From a virus (taxonomy: Duplodnaviria; Caudoviricetes), in the IMG/VR virus record IMGVR_UViG_3300032401_000016, positions 1-52,910 of that record: a stretch of 52,910 nt of DNA. The stretch is one strand, 5' to 3'. This document shows, piece after piece, positions 9,871 through 13,645 of the stretch (positions are counted from its first letter, which is position 1; every line of letters begins with the position of its first letter). Position numbers and translations under genes: made by a program. Below the pieces are notes generated by a model, which saw only the letters and a program-made list of their open reading frames with translations, was not told the origin of the DNA and did no database searches.

Positions 9871-9943
9871 TGGTCGTGGGCAGGGAATCGAACCCTAGCT
9901 TGACCGTTATCGGCGGCCTGTCCTACCACTAGACGATCCCACG
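9871..9943 (-). tRNA. tRNA-Ile(GAU)
   Basis: Anticodon arm GGCCG-CCGATAA-CGGTC, TTCGA loop, CCA. C33; acceptor 3' strand is one nt short. Confidence 0.85.
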
Positions 9944-9948
9944 AAAGT

Positions 9949-10024
9949 TGGAGTCCTCGGCAGGAGTTGCACCCGCGTCATCCGGGTTCGAAGCCCGGCG
10001 GTCTGTCTGCTGGCCTACGAGGAC
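9949..10024 (-). tRNA. tRNA-Arg(UCG)
   Basis: CCGGG-CTTCGAA-CCCGG; CCA; G55. Confidence 0.88.
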
Positions 10025-10097
10025 GTGACGTATGTTGATTTTTCGTCCATGTACGGATGCGGTGGCAGTTGGCGCACACCACGTCACACTCTGTATG
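10025..10097 (-). pseudogene. HNH endonuclease 3' remnant
   Basis: Spacer translates ECDVVCANCHRIRTW with no start codon or RBS. Confidence 0.75.
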
Positions 10098-10174
10098 TGG
10101 TCTCCTCGGCACGGATCGAACGTGCGGCCTCGATCTTCGCAGGATCGCGCTCTGTCCTACTGAGCTACGAGGAG
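10098..10174 (-). tRNA. tRNA-Arg(GCG)
   Basis: CGATC-CTGCGAA-GATCG; canonical D and T loops; CCA. Confidence 0.92.
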
Positions 10175-10179
10175 AAATC

Positions 10180-10257
10180 TGGAGGCCCTGGTGGGAGTCG
10201 AACCCACACTGTTCCGCGCTTAGGAGGCGCGGTGCCTGTCCGGTTGGCGACAGGGCC
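10180..10257 (-). tRNA. tRNA-Arg(CCU)
   Basis: CGCGC-CTCCTAA-GCGCG; CCA. Confidence 0.9.
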
Positions 10258-10262
10258 GGTGT

Positions 10263-10496
10263 CTACTTCGTGCCGTGCTCGCGATCGAGCGCGTCCGAGA
10301 GGCGCCCTTCGAGGATCGCGATCTTCGTGAGCGCATCGGAGAGCCGGCTGTTGACGAGCACGTGAATCTCCTGGAGCTTCTCCGCCGTAGCGGTCACGTT
10401 CTTGACGCTCTTGCGGGCCTGGAGAATCACAACGATCAGGGTCGGGAGGCTTGCGATCAGCGCGATGATGATAGCGATGGTGTCGGCGTGCGTCAC
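10263..10496 (-). CDS. Small single-TM coiled-coil protein (holin-like)
   Basis: TIAIIIALIASLPTLIVVIL TM followed by a heptad helix; GTG directly after a tRNA. Confidence 0.65.
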   Translation of the reverse strand: MTHADTIAIIIALIASLPTLIVVILQARKSVKNVTATAEKLQEIHVLVNSRLSDALTKIAILEGRLSDALDREHGTK

Positions 10497-10501
10497 GAAG
10501 G

Positions 10502-10571
10502 GGCCCTCGGCGGGACTCGAACCCGCGGAAACCGGCTTAGAAGGTCGGTGGTCGTCCAGCGACACAAGGGC
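10502..10571 (-). tRNA. tRNA-Arg(UCU), atypical fold
   Basis: ACCGAC-CTTCTAA-GCCGGT; 1-nt connector, 5-nt D loop; no encoded CCA. Confidence 0.75.
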
Positions 10572-10576
10572 AGTAC

Positions 10577-10648
10577 TGGCGCAAAGCCGAGGTGTCGATC
10601 CCCGCTCGGCGGGTTTTGGAGGCCCGCCTGGACGCCGGTCCGCGATGC
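10577..10648 (-). tRNA. tRNA-Trp(CCA), atypical fold
   Basis: GGCGGGC-CTCCAAA-ACCCGCC; G73, CCA; mismatched acceptor stem. Confidence 0.7.
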
Positions 10649-10655
10649 GTACGTC

Positions 10656-10731
10656 TGGTCGGCCTCGTCGGATTCGAACCGACACTGTGCGGTGTTTGAA
10701 GCCGCCGCCTCTGCCGTTGGGCTACAGGCCG
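10656..10731 (-). tRNA. tRNA-Leu(CAA), short variable loop
   Basis: GCGGC-TTCAAAC-ACCGC; Leu-type D arm; A73, CCA. Confidence 0.8.
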
Positions 10732-10736
10732 AAATC

Positions 10737-10823
10737 TGGTCGTCAAGGGGGGACTTGCACCCCCACGAGCTCGCGCCCACACGGCTCTCAACCGTGCGCG
10801 TCTGCTGATTCCGCCACTCGACG
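10737..10823 (-). tRNA. tRNA-Leu(GAG)
   Basis: CACGG-TTGAGAG-CCGTG; long variable arm; CCA. Confidence 0.9.
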
Positions 10824-10831
10824 ATGTGTTC

Positions 10832-10907
10832 TGGTAGCCCCCCAGGGATTCGAACCCTGACTGGCGCGCTTCTGAGGCGCGTGCCTCTGCCGTTGGGCTA
10901 GAGGGCC
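10832..10907 (-). tRNA. tRNA-Leu(CAG), short variable loop
   Basis: CGCGC-CTCAGAA-GCGCG; A73, CCA. Confidence 0.88.
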
Positions 10908-10913
10908 ATGAGC

Positions 10914-10988
10914 TGGAGCGGGCAGCGGGATTCGAACCCGCGACTTCGGCCTTGGCAAGGCAGCGTGCTACCGCTACACCATGCCCGC
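10914..10988 (-). tRNA. tRNA-Gly(GCC)
   Basis: TTGCCAA loop; GCG start, U73, CCA. Confidence 0.93.
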
Positions 10989-10993
10989 GAATC

Positions 10994-11067
10994 TGGAGCG
11001 ATCAGCGGGAATCGAACCCGCGTCGTCGGTTTGGAAGACCGAGGCCCTACCGCTGGACGATGATCGC
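10994..11067 (-). tRNA. tRNA-Gly(UCC)
   Basis: TCGGT-CTTCCAA-ACCGA; U73, CCA. Confidence 0.93.
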
Positions 11068-11072
11068 GTTTC

Positions 11073-11143
11073 TGGTAGCGGGTACGCGAGTCGCACGCGT
11101 CGAGCCTGGCGTATGAGACCTGGCCGATCCTGGATCACCCGCA
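11073..11143 (-). tRNA. tRNA-Met(CAU), atypical fold, 1:72 mismatch (initiator-like)
   Basis: GCCAGGT-CTCATAC-GCCAGGC; D arm GATC-CAG-GATC; CCA. Confidence 0.7.
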
Positions 11144-11148
11144 ACGTC

Positions 11149-11224
11149 TGGAGCCCACGGCGAGAGTCGAACTCGCTGGGACCGACTTACAAGGTCGGTG
11201 CGCGTCCACACGCGCAACGAGGGC
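11149..11224 (-). tRNA. tRNA-Thr(UGU)
   Basis: CCGAC-CTTGTAA-GTCGG; CCA. Confidence 0.85.
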
Positions 11225-11229
11225 ACTTC

Positions 11230-11305
11230 TGGAGCCGCACCCGGGCTACGATCCCGGCACCTCCCCCTTACCAAGGGGGTGCTCTGCCGACTGAGCTAGA
11301 GCGGC
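11230..11305 (-). tRNA. tRNA-Thr(GGU)
   Basis: CCCCC-TTGGTAA-GGGGG; CCA. Confidence 0.9.
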
Positions 11306-11321
11306 ACGAACGTATGCTTTC

Positions 11322-11339
11322 TGCGTACGATCGTACGCA
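11322..11339. repeat. Perfect 18-bp palindrome
   Basis: TGCGTACGATCGTACGCA in a tRNA spacer. Confidence 0.9.
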
Positions 11340-11351
11340 CACTGCGTAAGC

Positions 11352-11422
11352 TGGAGCCCTGGCCGAGAGTCGAACTCGGGGAGGCCGCGCTACGAGGGCG
11401 GCCCGCGTCCAACGCCGAGGGC
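11352..11422 (-). tRNA. tRNA-Thr(CGU), atypical fold
   Basis: GGCCGCC-CTCGTAG-CGCGGCC; D arm GCGT-TGG-ACGC; CCA. Confidence 0.75.
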
Positions 11423-11427
11423 ACTGC

Positions 11428-11503
11428 TGGTCACCCTCACGGGGATTGCACCCGTGTTTCCGGCTTGAGGGGCCGGCGTCCTGGGCTACTAGACGAGAGG
11501 GCG
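11428..11503 (-). tRNA. tRNA-Glu(CUC)
   Basis: CCGGC-CCCTCAA-GCCGG (C33); CCA. Confidence 0.88.
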
Positions 11504-11511
11504 AAACTCAT

Positions 11512-11590
11512 GACCGGTGCTCTTCCAGTTGAGCTATGCCGACCGCGGGGCCCCGCAGCCGGCCGGGGACTCGAACCCCTATCTCCGGTC
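11512..11590 (-). ncRNA. Circularly permuted tRNA-like RNA (YrlA-type module order: T arm, closed acceptor stem, D arm)
   Basis: GACCGG-AGAT-AGGGGTTCGAGTCCCC-GGCCGGCTGCGGGGCCCCGCGGTCGGC-ATAGCTCAACTGGAAGAGCA-CCGGTC. Confidence 0.85.
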
Positions 11591-11595
11591 CTACT

Positions 11596-11670
11596 TGGCT
11601 GGCGGGGAAGGACTCGAACCTTCGTGCCTCGGGTCAGAGCCGAGTATCCTGGCCGCTGAATGACCCGCCA
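11596..11670 (-). tRNA. tRNA-Gln(CUG)
   Basis: CTCGG-CTCTGAC-CCGAG; U1-A72, G73, CCA. Confidence 0.92.
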
Positions 11671-11674
11671 AAGA

Positions 11675-11749
11675 TGGCTCACTCGGTAGGACTCGAACCT
11701 ACGCGCAGCCGGTTAACAGCCGGCGGCTCTGCCGCTGAGCTACGAGTGA
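11675..11749 (-). tRNA. tRNA-Asn(GUU)
   Basis: CCGG-CTGTTAA-CCGG; U1-A72, G73, CCA. Confidence 0.92.
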
Positions 11750-11756
11750 ATAAAGC

Positions 11757-11830
11757 TGGTGCCGCCCGCGCGGATGGCTACGCGCATCGCCGGGGGTAAA
11801 GGCCCCGCACTCTACTTGAGCTAGAGCGGC
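11757..11830 (-). tRNA. tRNA-Lys(UUU), degenerate T loop
   Basis: CGGGG-CCTTTAC-CCCCG (C33); T loop TAGCCATC; CCA. Confidence 0.75.
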
Positions 11831-11836
11831 GAAACT

Positions 11837-11912
11837 TGGTGAGGCCCCTCGGCTTCGAACCGAGACCTGAGCGGGTAAGGGCCGCTCGCTCTGCCAGTTA
11901 AGCTAGAGCCCC
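11837..11912 (-). tRNA. tRNA-Lys(CUU)
   Basis: AGCGG-CCCTTAC-CCGCT (C33); CCA. Confidence 0.88.
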
Positions 11913-11917
11913 GAAGT

Positions 11918-11989
11918 TGGTGGAGATGTCGGGTATCGCGCCCGCGAGGGCTGCTTGCAAGGCAGCCGTGTGACCTTTCACACATCCCC
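11918..11989 (-). tRNA. tRNA-Ala(UGC), atypical fold
   Basis: GGCTGC-CTTGCAA-GCAGCC; G3:U70, A73, CCA. Confidence 0.8.
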
Positions 11990-11994
11990 ATATC

Positions 11995-12080
11995 TGGTGG
12001 CGCCGGCAGGACTCGAACCTGCGAAGCCCGGAGGCATCCGGTTTACAGCCGGAGGCGATTGCCGCTACGCGACGTGCGCC
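11995..12080 (-). tRNA. tRNA-Tyr(GUA)
   Basis: TCCGG-CTGTAAA-CCGGA; long variable arm; CCA. Confidence 0.9.
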
Positions 12081-12148
12081 GAAACTTTTCGTTTGTGTGT
12101 GCGAACTGCATGGCAGTTGGCACATACTACATCACACTTTTCGATAGA
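12081..12148 (-). pseudogene. HNH endonuclease 3' remnant (second copy)
   Basis: Spacer translates IEKCDVVCANCHAVRTHKRK; lower GC than surroundings; no start. Confidence 0.75.
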
Positions 12149-12223
12149 TGGGGTGACCGACGGGGTTCGAACCCATCCTGCCGCGTTCACAGCGCGACGT
12201 GCTTCCGCTACACCACGGCCACC
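12149..12223 (-). tRNA. tRNA-His(GUG)
   Basis: TCGCG-CTGTGAA-CGCGG; G-1:C73; CCA. Confidence 0.9.
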
Positions 12224-12231
12224 ATGTCGAT

Positions 12232-12299
12232 TGGCGGAAGGGGCGACCCCGATCGCGGGCCGGCTACGACCCCCCGGCGCGCCGGGGGCCGATCTCTCT
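12232..12299 (-). ncRNA. Unclassified CCA-terminated structured RNA
   Basis: tRNA-sized slot; hairpin CGGCCCCCGG-CGCG-CCGGGGGGTCG, then GGGG-TCG-CCCC-TTCCGCCA; no anticodon arm. Confidence 0.45.
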
Positions 12300-12374
12300 T
12301 GGTCAGGCCAGCCGGAATCGCACCGGCGTCATCGCCTTGAAGGGGCGAGGTCCTGTCTGCTAGACGATGGCCCG
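12300..12374 (-). tRNA. tRNA-Glu(UUC)
   Basis: TCGCC-CCTTCAA-GGCGA (C33); CCA. Confidence 0.88.
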
Positions 12375-12380
12375 AATGTG

Positions 12381-12461
12381 TTACGGGTCGACGACGACTT
12401 CCGGCCCGCAGTTGACGAAGAGGAACCGCACGAGGAGAGCGAAGAGGCTGTAGTCGAACAC
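12381..12461 (-). CDS. 26-aa hydrophobic peptide
   Basis: GGGGGTGAT SD plus GTG; MFDYSLFALLVRFLFVNCGPEVVVDP. Confidence 0.5.
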   Translation of the reverse strand: MFDYSLFALLVRFLFVNCGPEVVVDP

Positions 12462-12493
12462 GAGGTATCACCCCCTCTTCGGACGGCCGTAGA

Positions 12494-12568
12494 TGGCGGA
12501 CTCTGGGGGTTACGATCCCCGCCCTGCGCGTTGACAGCGCGCTGTGCTACCACTACACCACAGGGTCC
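12494..12568 (-). tRNA. tRNA-Asp(GUC)
   Basis: GCGCG-CTGTCAA-CGCGC; G73, CCA. Confidence 0.87.
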
Positions 12569-12574
12569 GTACGT

Positions 12575-12650
12575 TGGTAGCTCCTCTCGGCTTTGCTCCG
12601 AGTGCCTCCGCTTTGTAAGAGCGGCGCTCTCCTGATTGAGCTAAGGAGCT
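12575..12650 (-). tRNA. tRNA-Val(UAC)
   Basis: CCGCT-CTTACAA-AGCGG; T loop AGCAAAG; CCA. Confidence 0.85.
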
Positions 12651-12655
12651 ATGCT

Positions 12656-12732
12656 TGGCGCCTCCGGGCGGAATCGAACCGCCTACGCGCTGCTCTTCAG
12701 GCAGCCGCTACTACCGGTGAGCTACAGGAGGC
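12656..12732 (-). tRNA. tRNA-Phe(GAA)
   Basis: GCTGC-CTGAAGA-GCAGC; CCA. Confidence 0.88.
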
Positions 12733-12739
12733 GTGAAAC

Positions 12740-12832
12740 TGGAGGAAGGCGGGTCGAGTTGAACGCCCAACACGGTACATGCCGTGTGCTACGGTTTTCG
12801 GGACCGTCCGCTTACCATTCGCGCAGCCTTCC
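12740..12832 (-). tRNA. tRNA-Ser(CGA)
   Basis: ACGGT-CCCGAAA-ACCGT (C33); long variable arm; CCA. Confidence 0.87.
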
Positions 12833-12838
12833 GAAACT

Positions 12839-12909
12839 TGGGACCCGATTGTGGCTTGACACCCTCCCCGTCGACAGGGGGCATGGCTCGAGTCGACACC
12901 ACACTGGCC
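12839..12909 (-). ncRNA. Unclassified CCA-terminated rod-like RNA (possible Y-RNA Ro-binding stem)
   Basis: GGCCAGTGTGGTGTCGAC...GTGTCAAGCCACAATCGGGTCCCA; ends pair (TGTGG/CCACA); no D or T arm. Confidence 0.5.
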
Positions 12910-12912
12910 TTC

Positions 12913-12984
12913 TGGAGTCCGCGCCCGGTAACGCTCCGGGGTAGGCGTGCTTTGCAGGCACGCGCGCGACTTTCACTCGCGGAC
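12913..12984 (-). tRNA. tRNA-Cys(GCA), atypical fold
   Basis: GCGTGC-CTGCAAA-GCACGC; U73, CCA; 3-nt D loop. Confidence 0.8.
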
Positions 12985-12989
12985 AAAAC

Positions 12990-13079
12990 TGGCGGAGGCG
13001 CGAGGGATCGAACCTCGGCGCGCTGTTGAGCGCGGCTACGGTTTAGCAAACCGTCCCGTTACCGCTCCGGCACGCCTCC
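12990..13079 (-). tRNA. tRNA-Ser(GCU)
   Basis: ACGGT-TTGCTAA-ACCGT; long variable arm; G73, CCA. Confidence 0.9.
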
Positions 13080-13249
13080 TACTTCTTCTTGCCCTTCATC
13101 ACCTTGATCGCCTTCTTCACGACCTTGTGGAGGGACTTGTCTTCCTTCTCGGCCTTCTCGTAGGCTCGGGTCTCGCCGGCCTCGTGGGAGACCGTTTCCT
13201 TCTCGCGGCGCGCGTCGGCACGCATCTTCGGATTGACACGACGTGCCAT
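13079..13249 (-). CDS. 56-aa basic protein inside the tRNA array
   Basis: AGGAG RBS; MARRVNPK...KVMKGKKK. Confidence 0.7.
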   Translation of the reverse strand: MARRVNPKMRADARREKETVSHEAGETRAYEKAEKEDKSLHKVVKKAIKVMKGKKK

Positions 13250-13258
13250 TTCTTCTCC

Positions 13259-13334
13259 TGGTCGGGTGGCGCGGATTCGCACCGCGATTGGCTCGCTTCC
13301 AGGGCGAGGGGCTTGGCTGTTAGCCGACCGCCCG
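13259..13334 (-). tRNA. tRNA-Pro(UGG)
   Basis: CTCGC-CCTGGAA-GCGAG (C33, A37); C1-G72; CCA. Confidence 0.85.
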
Positions 13335-13338
13335 AAAC

Positions 13339-13414
13339 TGGTGGAGAGAGCAGGATTCGCGCCTGCGTTAGCTCGCGTCCGAAGCGAGAGTCTTATCTGC
13401 TAGACGACCTCTCC
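13339..13414 (-). tRNA. tRNA-Pro(CGG)
   Basis: CTCGC-TTCGGAC-GCGAG (A37); CCA. Confidence 0.85.
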
Positions 13415-13420
13415 GTAAAC

Positions 13421-13498
13421 TGGTTGGGAAGGCGGGATTCGAACCCGCGACCACCTCCATCCCGAGGAGGTACGCTGACCGGGCTGCGCTACTTCCCA
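13421..13498 (-). tRNA. tRNA-Pro(GGG)
   Basis: CCTCC-TCGGGAT-GGAGG (C33, A37); CCA. Confidence 0.88.
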
Positions 13499-13506
13499 AT
13501 GAAGTC

Positions 13507-13580
13507 TGGCTGACGGGGCTCGGTTCGAACGAGCGCTGGATGGGTCAAAGCCACCTGTGCTTCCGCTACACCACCCGTCA
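13507..13580 (-). tRNA. tRNA-Gln(UUG)
   Basis: GGTGG-CTTTGAC-CCATC; G73, CCA. Confidence 0.9.
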
Positions 13581-13616: not shown

Positions 13617-13645
13617 AATGTAGCACACGCCCCGGCCCGTGTCAA
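13617..13645 (-). promoter_or_regulatory. Sigma70-type promoter of the tRNA array
   Basis: TTGACA-17 nt-TACATT with extended -10 TG. Confidence 0.85.

Follow-up and report, generated by a model that had tools for sequence, protein, structure and literature searches.

Six transfer RNA (tRNA) genes, all on the minus strand between positions 10502 and 12984 of a virus of the Caudoviricetes (IMG/VR record IMGVR_UViG_3300032401_000016), probably represent a widespread structural class of phage tRNAs with a compact core. The whole stretch of DNA analysed, 52,910 nucleotides (nt) long, is referred to below as the window. We consider it roughly 70% probable that the six genes belong to such a class and are working adaptors, which would be processed, charged and read by the ribosome. 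Comparison of related sequences indicates that the compact pairing scheme is under selection, with the features of the acceptor, the anticodon and the CCA end retained, and working tRNAs would be the simplest reading of that combination. The six genes are listed here with coordinates that include the discriminator and, where encoded, CCA; each cloverleaf parse is given as connector / D stem-loop / spacer / anticodon stem / variable loop.

10502..10571, minus strand: compact tRNA-Arg(UCU), 1 / 4-5 / 1 / 6 (one A.C) / 4; CCA not encoded
10577..10648, minus strand: compact tRNA-Trp(CCA), 0 / 4-4 / 1 / 7 (C.A at the loop) / 3; G73, CCA
11073..11143, minus strand: compact tRNA-Met(CAU), 0 / 4-3 / 1 / 7 (internal A.A) / 3; A73, CCA
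11352..11422, minus strand: compact tRNA-Thr(CGU), 0 / 4-3 or 3-5 / 1 / 7 (C.C at the loop) / 3; U73, CCA
11918..11989, minus strand: compact tRNA-Ala(UGC), 0 / 5-4 / 1 / 6 / 3 or, equally, 1 / 4-4 / 2 / 6 / 3; G3.U70, A73, CCA, G49.A65 non-pair
12913..12984, minus strand: compact tRNA-Cys(GCA), 1 / 4-3 / 2 / 6 / 4, no mismatch; U73, CCA

A preliminary description, made from the sequence alone, had placed six tRNAs here, and all six were recovered by a cloverleaf scanner of our own. The scanner was restricted to class-I tRNAs with a 7-base pair (bp) acceptor stem and a 7-nt T loop; its permitted ranges were 0-2 nt for the connector, 3-5 pairs for the D stem, 3-11 nt for the D loop, 0-2 nt for the spacer, 5-7 pairs for the anticodon stem and 3-5 nt for the variable loop. 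The six genes scored 30 (Trp), 35, 36, 38, 40 and 43 (Cys); two hits with a score of at least 30 were obtained from 97,620 bases of chance control (both strands of the rest of the window), and 20 shuffles of the tRNA array gave none. Every gene parsed with the general features of the cloverleaf (7-bp acceptor stem, 5-bp T stem with 7-nt loop, 7-nt anticodon loop, U33 and a purine at 37), with between zero and three non-pairs per gene, and a discriminator plus encoded CCA was present in five of the six, the exception being Arg(UCU). The anticodons are UCU, CCA, CAU, CGU, UGC and GCA. The geometry given previously agreed with these parses: a connector of about 1 nt and a 6-bp anticodon stem in Arg, Ala (0 or 1 nt) and Cys; no connector, a 7-pair stem with one mismatch and a 3-nt variable loop in Trp, Met and Thr(CGU). 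The identity elements that had been named (Ala G3:U70 and A73, Cys U73, Trp G73) were also present. Across the six genes the connector is 0-1 nt, the D loop 3-5 nt, as had been described, the anticodon stem 6-7 pairs and the variable loop 3-4 nt.

Connector, spacer and stem can be delimited in more than one way, and two lengths were therefore used as the robust measure. The distance from acceptor stem to anticodon loop is 19-21 nt in the six genes as against 23-25 nt in the 17 canonical class-I tRNAs of the array, with none at 22, and the distance from anticodon loop to T stem is 9-10 nt in compact and canonical array tRNAs alike. All six have the two lengths by which the compact class is defined here (at most 21 nt on the 5' side and 9-10 nt on the 3' side), and the shortening is confined to the 5' side, the 3' half being of normal length. 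The picture given in the preliminary description needs one correction: the 3' segment is unchanged, and the longer stem and shorter variable loop arise by re-pairing, because that segment pairs further up.

The non-unique division also lends something to the argument that the compact form is an artefact of a permissive parse and that the RNAs are really canonical cloverleaves with a small D loop. Ala can be drawn as 0/5-4/1 or as 1/4-4/2, Cys has an alternative drawing with seven anticodon-stem pairs that include a C.C, and canonical tRNAs (His and Thr(UGU)) can equally be drawn with a 26:44 pair as a '6-bp stem'. This explanation is very improbable. A canonical layout needs 2+4+7 or more+4+1+5, that is at least 23 nt, where 19-21 are available; all D-stem and anticodon-stem pairs covary in an alignment of 20 compact Ala sequences, in which a slid partner destroys the pairing; and the canonical Rfam model fails on four of the six. 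A reading of the six as canonical tRNAs with a 26:44 pair was likewise ruled out by the length arithmetic.

The compact core recurs in many viral contigs. A pattern for Ala was used that specifies only four Gs at the start, the anticodon loop of Ala(UGC), the 3' end and a set of spacings into which no canonical tRNA would fit, and contains no stem letters; it matched 60 viral stretches, with about 16 chance hits estimated. There were 67 matches, 51 parsing as cloverleaves, with 48 distinct sequences. The distinct sequences of architecture 0 / 4-4 / 1 / 7 / 3, 20 in number, were aligned without gaps; 98.0% of the stem cells are paired, compared with 69.0% in shuffles and 40-48% with a slid partner, and 18 of the 23 pairs have changed on both sides, including all four D-stem and all seven anticodon-stem pairs. 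The architecture of the window Ala (0 / 5-4 / 1 / 6 / 3) is common to four other contigs. In this group of five, 93% of cells are paired, nine pairs have changed on both sides, and the G49.A65 non-pair, at the first position of the T stem, is kept in every member.

The 60 loci with compact Ala yielded 520 class-I cloverleaves by scanner, 89 of them compact. Forty-two of the 89 are not Ala(UGC) and carry 15 other anticodons (CAU 12; CCA, UUG, ACG and CUG 4 each; CCU 3; and others), and compact Met, Arg, Trp, Gln, Thr and Cys tRNAs are found beside compact Ala. CCA is encoded in 37 of these 42, and 17 have no mismatch. Leaving out Ala(UGC), the 5'-side lengths in the 60 loci are bimodal, with 42 tRNAs at 18-21 nt, seven at 22 and 420 at 23-29; the peak of the compact class lies at 20-21 nt and the trough at 22. 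T loops that start with A are frequent in the compact set and missing from the commonest canonical ones, and the T-loop heptamers of the window Trp and Cys recur in the compact set. These data support the view that the coupled changes mark a conserved class and not a decay peculiar to the window phage.

The class is also present in cultured phages, where its members are mostly hidden by annotation. A blastn search with the window Ala found a 72-nt feature of Rhodobacter phage RcXuper (OP186293.1, 11039-11110) annotated as tRNA-Ser(cga), which parses as a compact Ala(UGC); it has G3.U70, A73 and CCA, and it shares the G.A non-pair of the window gene. The same phage encodes an unannotated compact Arg(ACG) (OP186293.1, 12847-12919), the homologues of which are unannotated in DSS3P8, vB_RpoS-V10, RpAliso and MD18 and annotated as tRNA-Arg in DSS3_MAL1. 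Seven compact Arg(ACG/CCG) genes from four cultured Rhodobacteraceae phages are 99.4% paired, and 12 of 23 pairs have changed on both sides. The compensatory changes in homologues that had been proposed as a check were therefore found in all three sets, the 20 Ala, the five Ala and the seven Arg. Searches of cultured phages by blastn with Cys, Thr(CGU) and one compact Ala of a viral contig gave no match, and the only match for Trp plus Arg(UCU) was one of 43 nt, to the tRNA-Arg(UCU) of a Yersinia phage. Among the GenBank phage records examined (L342-L345) a short-D-loop Ala(UGC) is also unannotated. A 74-nt feature of DSS3_MAL1 (13412-13485) is labelled 'tRNA-Pyl'.

Standard scanners had been expected to miss or flag these genes, and this was borne out. 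ARAGORN at default settings reported 28 tRNAs in the window, among them two of the six (Arg(UCU) and Cys). The Rfam tRNA model RF00005 at its gathering score (29 bits) reported 23, which included only Arg(UCU) of the six (35.0 bits); at E<=10 over the array only, Ala was added at 33.5 bits and Cys, Trp, Met and Thr(CGU) had no match, so that the 29-bit threshold was reached by two of the six, Ala in E-value mode only. With a lowered threshold, ARAGORN found Ala (under -ps80 or -mt only), and over Thr(CGU), Met and Trp it gave tRNA-like objects with wrong or undetermined anticodons. GenBank records, as seen in the cultured phages, mis-annotate or omit such genes.

A comparison with a custom covariance model, also suggested previously, gave a different ranking. 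Model R1 was constructed from the 20 compact Ala of other contigs, with no window sequence, and run unfiltered over the array; its E-values are rough and, as it is derived from Ala, the scores of non-Ala tRNAs are depressed. Ala came first with 61.1 bits, followed by Trp at 39.1, Met at 38.2, Thr(UGU) at 37.1, in which 4 nt are inserted, and Thr(CGU) at 33.6. The top five therefore contain four of the six, including three for which Rfam gave nothing. Trp, Met and Thr(CGU) align to R1 end to end with at most a one-base deletion in the D loop; canonical array tRNAs score 10-37 bits, but with insertions. Cys (26.2 bits) and Arg(UCU) (19.4 bits) stand lower. When R1 was run over 151 genomes of one alphaproteobacterial-type class, no 72-nt compact match was found among the 150 matches listed, all of which are 75-76 nt long and the best of which scores 51.6 bits; 194 further matches are weaker than these.

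Capsid-based scans led to 28, then 69 related viral loci. Among 64 related viral records, RF00005 detected large arrays in only three, here numbered G001, G010 and G024, and five to six tRNAs in a fourth (G015). The capsid protein of G001 is 83% identical to that of the window and the array is syntenic, but the contig ends after His, inside the array, and Cys alone is therefore comparable; its acceptor stem is identical to that of the window Cys, as are five of the six anticodon-stem pairs. Eighteen related genomes were fetched whole (0.97 Mb) and scanned, giving 60 hits, nine of which lack the T-loop motif and are probably false. Three compact tRNAs were present, Met of G024, Met of G045 and Arg(CCU) of G019. 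Between the window and G024, Met has all four pairs of the D-arm stem identical and 10 other pairs different on both sides; Met of G045 is compact with no mismatch, and the Met homologue of G010 is canonical. The Arg(CCU), compact and mismatch-free with a fold z-score of -5.18, is the sole tRNA of a 45.6-kb genome rated 100% complete. MAFFT alignments (of Met, and of the Thr/Arg paralogues) misplaced the acceptor-stem gaps, and stems were compared by coordinates instead. Exact-motif scans for the compact Met D arm and the Cys family found G024 and G001 only, and a looser Met pattern applied to one genome per prokaryote species gave three matches, none of them a cloverleaf.

Met was investigated further as a family. 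The pattern of the window Met, U1.U72 with A73, occurs in 106 viral stretches; from the 80 loci of these that were returned (L176-L255), 81 matches of 69-81 nt were parsed, 68 of them successfully, and nine of the 68 have at most 21 nt on the 5' side. A 1:72 non-pair with A73, as in an initiator, is present in the window (U1.U72), in G024 (C1.U72) and in G010 (U1.U72). In bacterial initiator tRNA three consecutive G-C pairs close the anticodon stem; the loop-proximal pairs of the window Met are U.G, G-C and G-C. The anticodon arm of some members of the U1.U72 family looks like that of the E. coli initiator tRNA, and the family may be a phage initiator-like tRNA.

The position of the six genes in the tRNA complement of the phage bears on their role. 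The array and its putative promoter are as follows.

9872..13580, minus strand: whole tRNA array, about 35 genes, spacers mostly 4-9 nt (ARAGORN, Rfam and cloverleaf scanner)
13617..13645, minus strand: sigma-70-like promoter match, 10/12 of the consensus, extended -10 TG, ~37 nt upstream of the first tRNA

Sixteen amino acids are covered by canonical members of the array; for Ala, Cys, Met and Trp the window has compact genes only, and compact and canonical tRNAs together cover all 20. By our own arithmetic the probability that the four missing identities would fall among six random ones is about 0.002 under a crude uniform model. Of the Thr codons of the phage 45% are ACG, read by Thr(CGU), and of its Ala codons 54% are GCG. 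Promoter-like sites were assessed by match to the consensus only, and two were found compared with a mean of 0.5 in shuffles.

The route from gene to ribosome may be pictured as follows. Transcription would start, as for the whole array, at the promoter-like site (13645-13617), and the compact RNAs would be excised at the short spacers, as for the neighbouring tRNAs, five of the six carrying encoded CCA. In the compact class the segment from acceptor to anticodon loop is 19-21 nt, with the 8-9 connector lost or reduced to 1 nt and a D loop of 3-5 nt, and the anticodon helix extends to six or seven pairs through pairing of what would be position 26 and earlier with 44-45; the 7-bp acceptor stem, the 5-bp T stem, the 7-nt anticodon loop and the length of the 3' half are kept. 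Host synthetases could charge the RNAs through the identity elements in the preserved acceptor and anticodon parts. In decoding, the compact genes of the window phage would supply the only Ala, Cys, Met and Trp of the 20-amino-acid set.

Several observations weigh against the reading of all six as intact adaptors of one compact class. Trp has two adjacent mismatches in the centre of the acceptor stem (4:69 and 5:68), and the z-score of its minimum free energy (MFE) fold is +0.10. Arg(UCU) encodes no CCA, contains an A.C pair and scores only 19.4 bits with R1, and its codon, AGA, accounts for 10 of the 10,973 codons of the phage. For Thr(CGU) and Arg(UCU) the MFE fold differs from a cloverleaf, and the stack of D and anticodon stems would have 11-12 layers where the canonical one has 10. 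The G001 orthologue of Cys, the only one found, has a 2-nt connector and a 6-nt D loop and departs from the compact form; searches for homologues with the compact form of the window gene were negative for Cys, Trp, Thr(CGU) and Arg(UCU) alike. The alignment of 20 Ala sequences was picked by a scanner that favours pairing, from a source pattern without stem letters. A canonical Arg(ACG) immediately precedes the compact one in DSS3_MAL1 and MD18, an arrangement that would also fit a non-decoding role. The defects of the individual genes were absent from the preliminary description, and include in addition a C6.C67 acceptor non-pair in Thr(CGU), the U1.U72 non-pair of Met, and T loops without the usual T54-T55-C56 start in Cys, Ala, Met and Trp. 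In Cys, Ala and Met the MFE fold coincides with the compact cloverleaf, as it does in Trp apart from an open acceptor centre. As candidates for working tRNAs we rank Ala highest, Met, Thr(CGU) and Cys intermediate, and Trp and Arg(UCU), the weakest of the six, lowest.

Such defects would be expected of decaying or dead duplicates of canonical tRNA genes, in which D-region deletions had left a foldable remnant by chance. Mismatches in the stems of Trp, Thr, Met and Arg, the missing CCA of Arg(UCU), weak or positive folding z-scores (Trp, Met and Arg) and other damaged-looking pieces in the array all point in this direction, as does the visible shortening of Arg(UCU) and Thr(CGU) relative to their paralogue Thr(UGU) (11149-11224). 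The three have the acceptor 5' strand in common (at most one base apart, between Arg and Thr(UGU)) and the same four D-loop letters, and from Thr(UGU) through Arg(UCU) to Thr(CGU) the connector falls from 2 to 1 to 0 nt and the D stem from 5 to 4 to 3 pairs. Arg(UCU) and Thr(UGU) have an identical anticodon-stem 5' strand and anticodon loops that differ at the middle anticodon base alone, which suggests that the anticodon may have shifted after duplication. The T stems of the paralogues differ on both sides of a pair. In Thr(CGU) and Arg(UCU) the D loop still contains GG, and the T loop is of the standard kind.

As an account of the six genes together, decay is unlikely. Unrelated viral contigs amounting to hundreds of kb contain the same architecture, 93-99% paired and with numerous pairs changed on both sides; the lengths are bimodal and form no smear, and many members are mismatch-free; and the window has no Ala, Cys, Met or Trp tRNA other than the compact ones. 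It is possible that decay applies mainly to Trp and Arg(UCU) individually. The earlier proposal of a functional alternative class rather than decay is thus upheld with regard to a conserved class, by the two-sided pair changes, the R1 ranking and the bimodal lengths, and is less secure with regard to the intactness of all six, given the defects of Trp and Arg(UCU).

The compact RNAs might also be made without acting in translation, serving as decoys for host enzymes that cleave or modify tRNAs, or as regulators. The neighbouring compact and canonical Arg(ACG) genes of DSS3_MAL1 and MD18 are compatible with this, as are the coexisting compact and canonical Ala(UGC) of RcXuper and, in the window array, an unchargeable tRNA-like RNA with a circularly permuted layout (11504-11595). 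The accessible portions of PMC10264068, PMC11555353 and PMC11464382 moreover document that hosts defend themselves by cutting tRNAs and that phage tRNAs can counteract this. A purely non-translational role is nevertheless improbable: identity elements, U33, the purine at 37, the 7-nt anticodon loop, the 7/5 helix and CCA are kept across the class, not all of which a pure decoy needs, and no other gene of the window supplies Ala, Cys, Met and Trp.

If the compact RNAs are working adaptors, a link with host defence can still be imagined. The altered core, variable region and elbow of D and T loops might, speculatively, make them poor substrates for host tRNA-cleaving defences or independent of core modifications. 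A bolder proposal, which we regard as doubtful, is that phages possess a second tRNA chassis for many amino acids, with a core like that of the pyrrolysine tRNA and a rewired elbow of D and T loops, which is charged by the host and read by the ribosome while escaping host enzymes that recognise the canonical core, variable region or elbow (defence nucleases that cleave tRNAs, or enzymes that modify the core), as a counter-defence. This would explain why compact tRNAs stand beside canonical isoacceptors in some phages and replace them in the window phage. The link to defence evasion is drawn from the general literature on cleavage of tRNAs by hosts and its countering by phage tRNAs (PMC10264068, PMC11555353, PMC11464382, PMC12445682 and PMC13096335, in their accessible portions).

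If the reading as working adaptors is correct, bacterial translation routinely accepts a compact scaffold resembling that of tRNAPyl (the pyrrolysine tRNA) for many amino acids. Counts of phage tRNAs would be too low and some records wrong ('tRNA-Ser' for a compact Ala; unannotated Arg genes), and the class would constitute a natural library of alternative scaffolds for genetic-code engineering. It would also provide a concrete, testable hypothesis for phage-host conflict over tRNAs, and the phages RcXuper (on Rhodobacter capsulatus) and DSS3P8 or MD18 (on Rhodobacteraceae) are available as cultured systems.

CheckV rates the window, a complete viral record, at 100% completeness, and its G+C content is 66.8%. 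Among its products are an SU10-type major capsid protein and portal, a DNA polymerase of family A and an endolysin of the GH108 type that carries a PG_binding_3 domain; the endolysin suggests a Gram-negative host. No close cultured phage was found for the genome, and the array, compared with cultured phages by megablast, yielded no more than one HNH-like match of 35 nt. Contigs of two other sediment metagenomes are identical to the window over 10435-10592, 11239-11444 and 11944-12094. Among the sequencing runs listed for the phage none was of RNA, and four DNA sequencing runs gave identical low-depth pieces with no variants within the six genes, the output being mostly canonical tRNAs of other organisms. 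A neighbouring protein of 902 amino acids had no viral match as a single query, and an alignment search with it led to two metagenome loci, neither with tRNAs.

Further elements of the array were observed. The 92-nt RNA at 11504-11595 (minus strand) lies between Gln(CUG) and Glu(CUC) and folds as a circularly permuted tRNA, in the order T arm, acceptor stem closed into an 11-bp hairpin, and D arm, with a 6-bp 'anticodon' stem enclosing all; the frequency of its MFE structure is 0.73 and its z-score -3.17. Its layout is reminiscent of the tRNA-like module of the bacterial Y-RNA-like YrlA, and Rfam gave no YrlA match there. ARAGORN and Rfam both overlooked a further tRNA-like gene at 11757-11830 (minus strand), the anticodon loop of which is of the Lys(UUU) type except for C at position 33; its D loop is 5 nt long and its T loop 8 nt, A73 and CCA are present, and its 5' part matches Thr(GGU). 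The spacers 10025-10097 and 12081-12148 share a short stretch which, by eye, is like an HNH endonuclease zinc-finger motif, and the former contains 35 nt that match sequence annotated as HNH endonuclease genes in Gordonia phages. Two other spacers, 12223-12299 (77 nt) and 12833-12912 (80 nt), both read on the minus strand, are G+C-rich and hairpin-forming with no cloverleaf fit; the second is missing from the syntenic G001 array, where Ser(CGA) comes directly after Cys. Ser(CGA) itself (12744-12832, minus strand) scored 36.8 bits on the Rfam tRNA-Sec model, which has a threshold of 47, probably on account of its long variable arm.

No description of a phage tRNA class with a compact D/anticodon branch was found in the searchable full-text literature, a scope that excludes subscription journals and supplements. 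The nearest known structures are those to which the six genes had been likened at the outset, tRNAPyl and the mammalian mitochondrial tRNA (mt-tRNA) for Ser(UCN), and the likeness agrees with the accessible portion of PMC7609411. According to that source, tRNAPyl, especially that of Methanomethylophilus alvus, has a connector of 0-1 nt between acceptor and D stems, a D loop of 4-5 nt, a 6-bp anticodon stem and a 3-nt variable loop, the M. alvus form having no connector and a 4-nt D loop, and tRNAPyl often lacks G18-G19 and the T-Psi-C sequence. The compact core is shared by all six window genes, with a variable loop of 3 nt in four and of 4 nt in Arg and Cys, and four of the six are likewise without the usual T-loop start. 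However, tRNAPyl is a single amber suppressor with a CUA anticodon and its own synthetase, found in archaea and a few bacteria. None of the six has CUA; the phage class carries sense anticodons (Ala, Arg, Cys, Met, Thr and Trp, and elsewhere Gln, Gly, His, Lys and Val), and its anticodon stem reaches seven pairs. No PylRS match was obtained among the 23 distinct open reading frames of the window that were scanned in Pfam, PHROGs or both, most of its reading frames lying outside that scan.

The mammalian mt-tRNASer(UCN), of type I, is described in the same portion of PMC7609411 as an L-shaped tRNA in which one nucleotide serves as connector, the D loop is small, the anticodon stem is 6 bp long and the variable loop has 3 nt; the compact phage tRNAs match it in shape. 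It differs in being organellar, A/U-rich and a single species served by a dedicated mitochondrial synthetase, whereas the phage genes are G+C-rich and must use bacterial enzymes. The compact class belongs neither with tRNAPyl nor with this mt-tRNA, since it carries sense anticodons and is encoded by phages.

Among phages, the accessible portion of PMC5389517 reports non-canonical 8/4 tRNASer and tRNAHis, resembling allo-tRNAs, in phages of alphaproteobacteria, which like the window carry clusters with non-standard yet apparently functional tRNAs. In the 8/4 or 9/3 tRNAs the acceptor/T branch is altered and the variable arms are long, whereas the compact class keeps 7/5 and is altered in the D/anticodon branch. 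Large arrays, such as those of mycobacteriophage cluster M and the L-arrays, contain up to dozens of tRNAs, sometimes for all 20 amino acids (PMC6409571, PMC8421152), and are reported to travel with homing endonucleases (PMC8421152); the accessible portions of these reports contain no description of a compact core. The window resembles them in its dense array and in its HNH-like remnants. The viral genomes with tRNA clusters in the 2019 survey, as far as the accessible part of PMC6409571 extends, range from 72 to 617 kb, while the window phage carries about 35 tRNAs in 52.9 kb.

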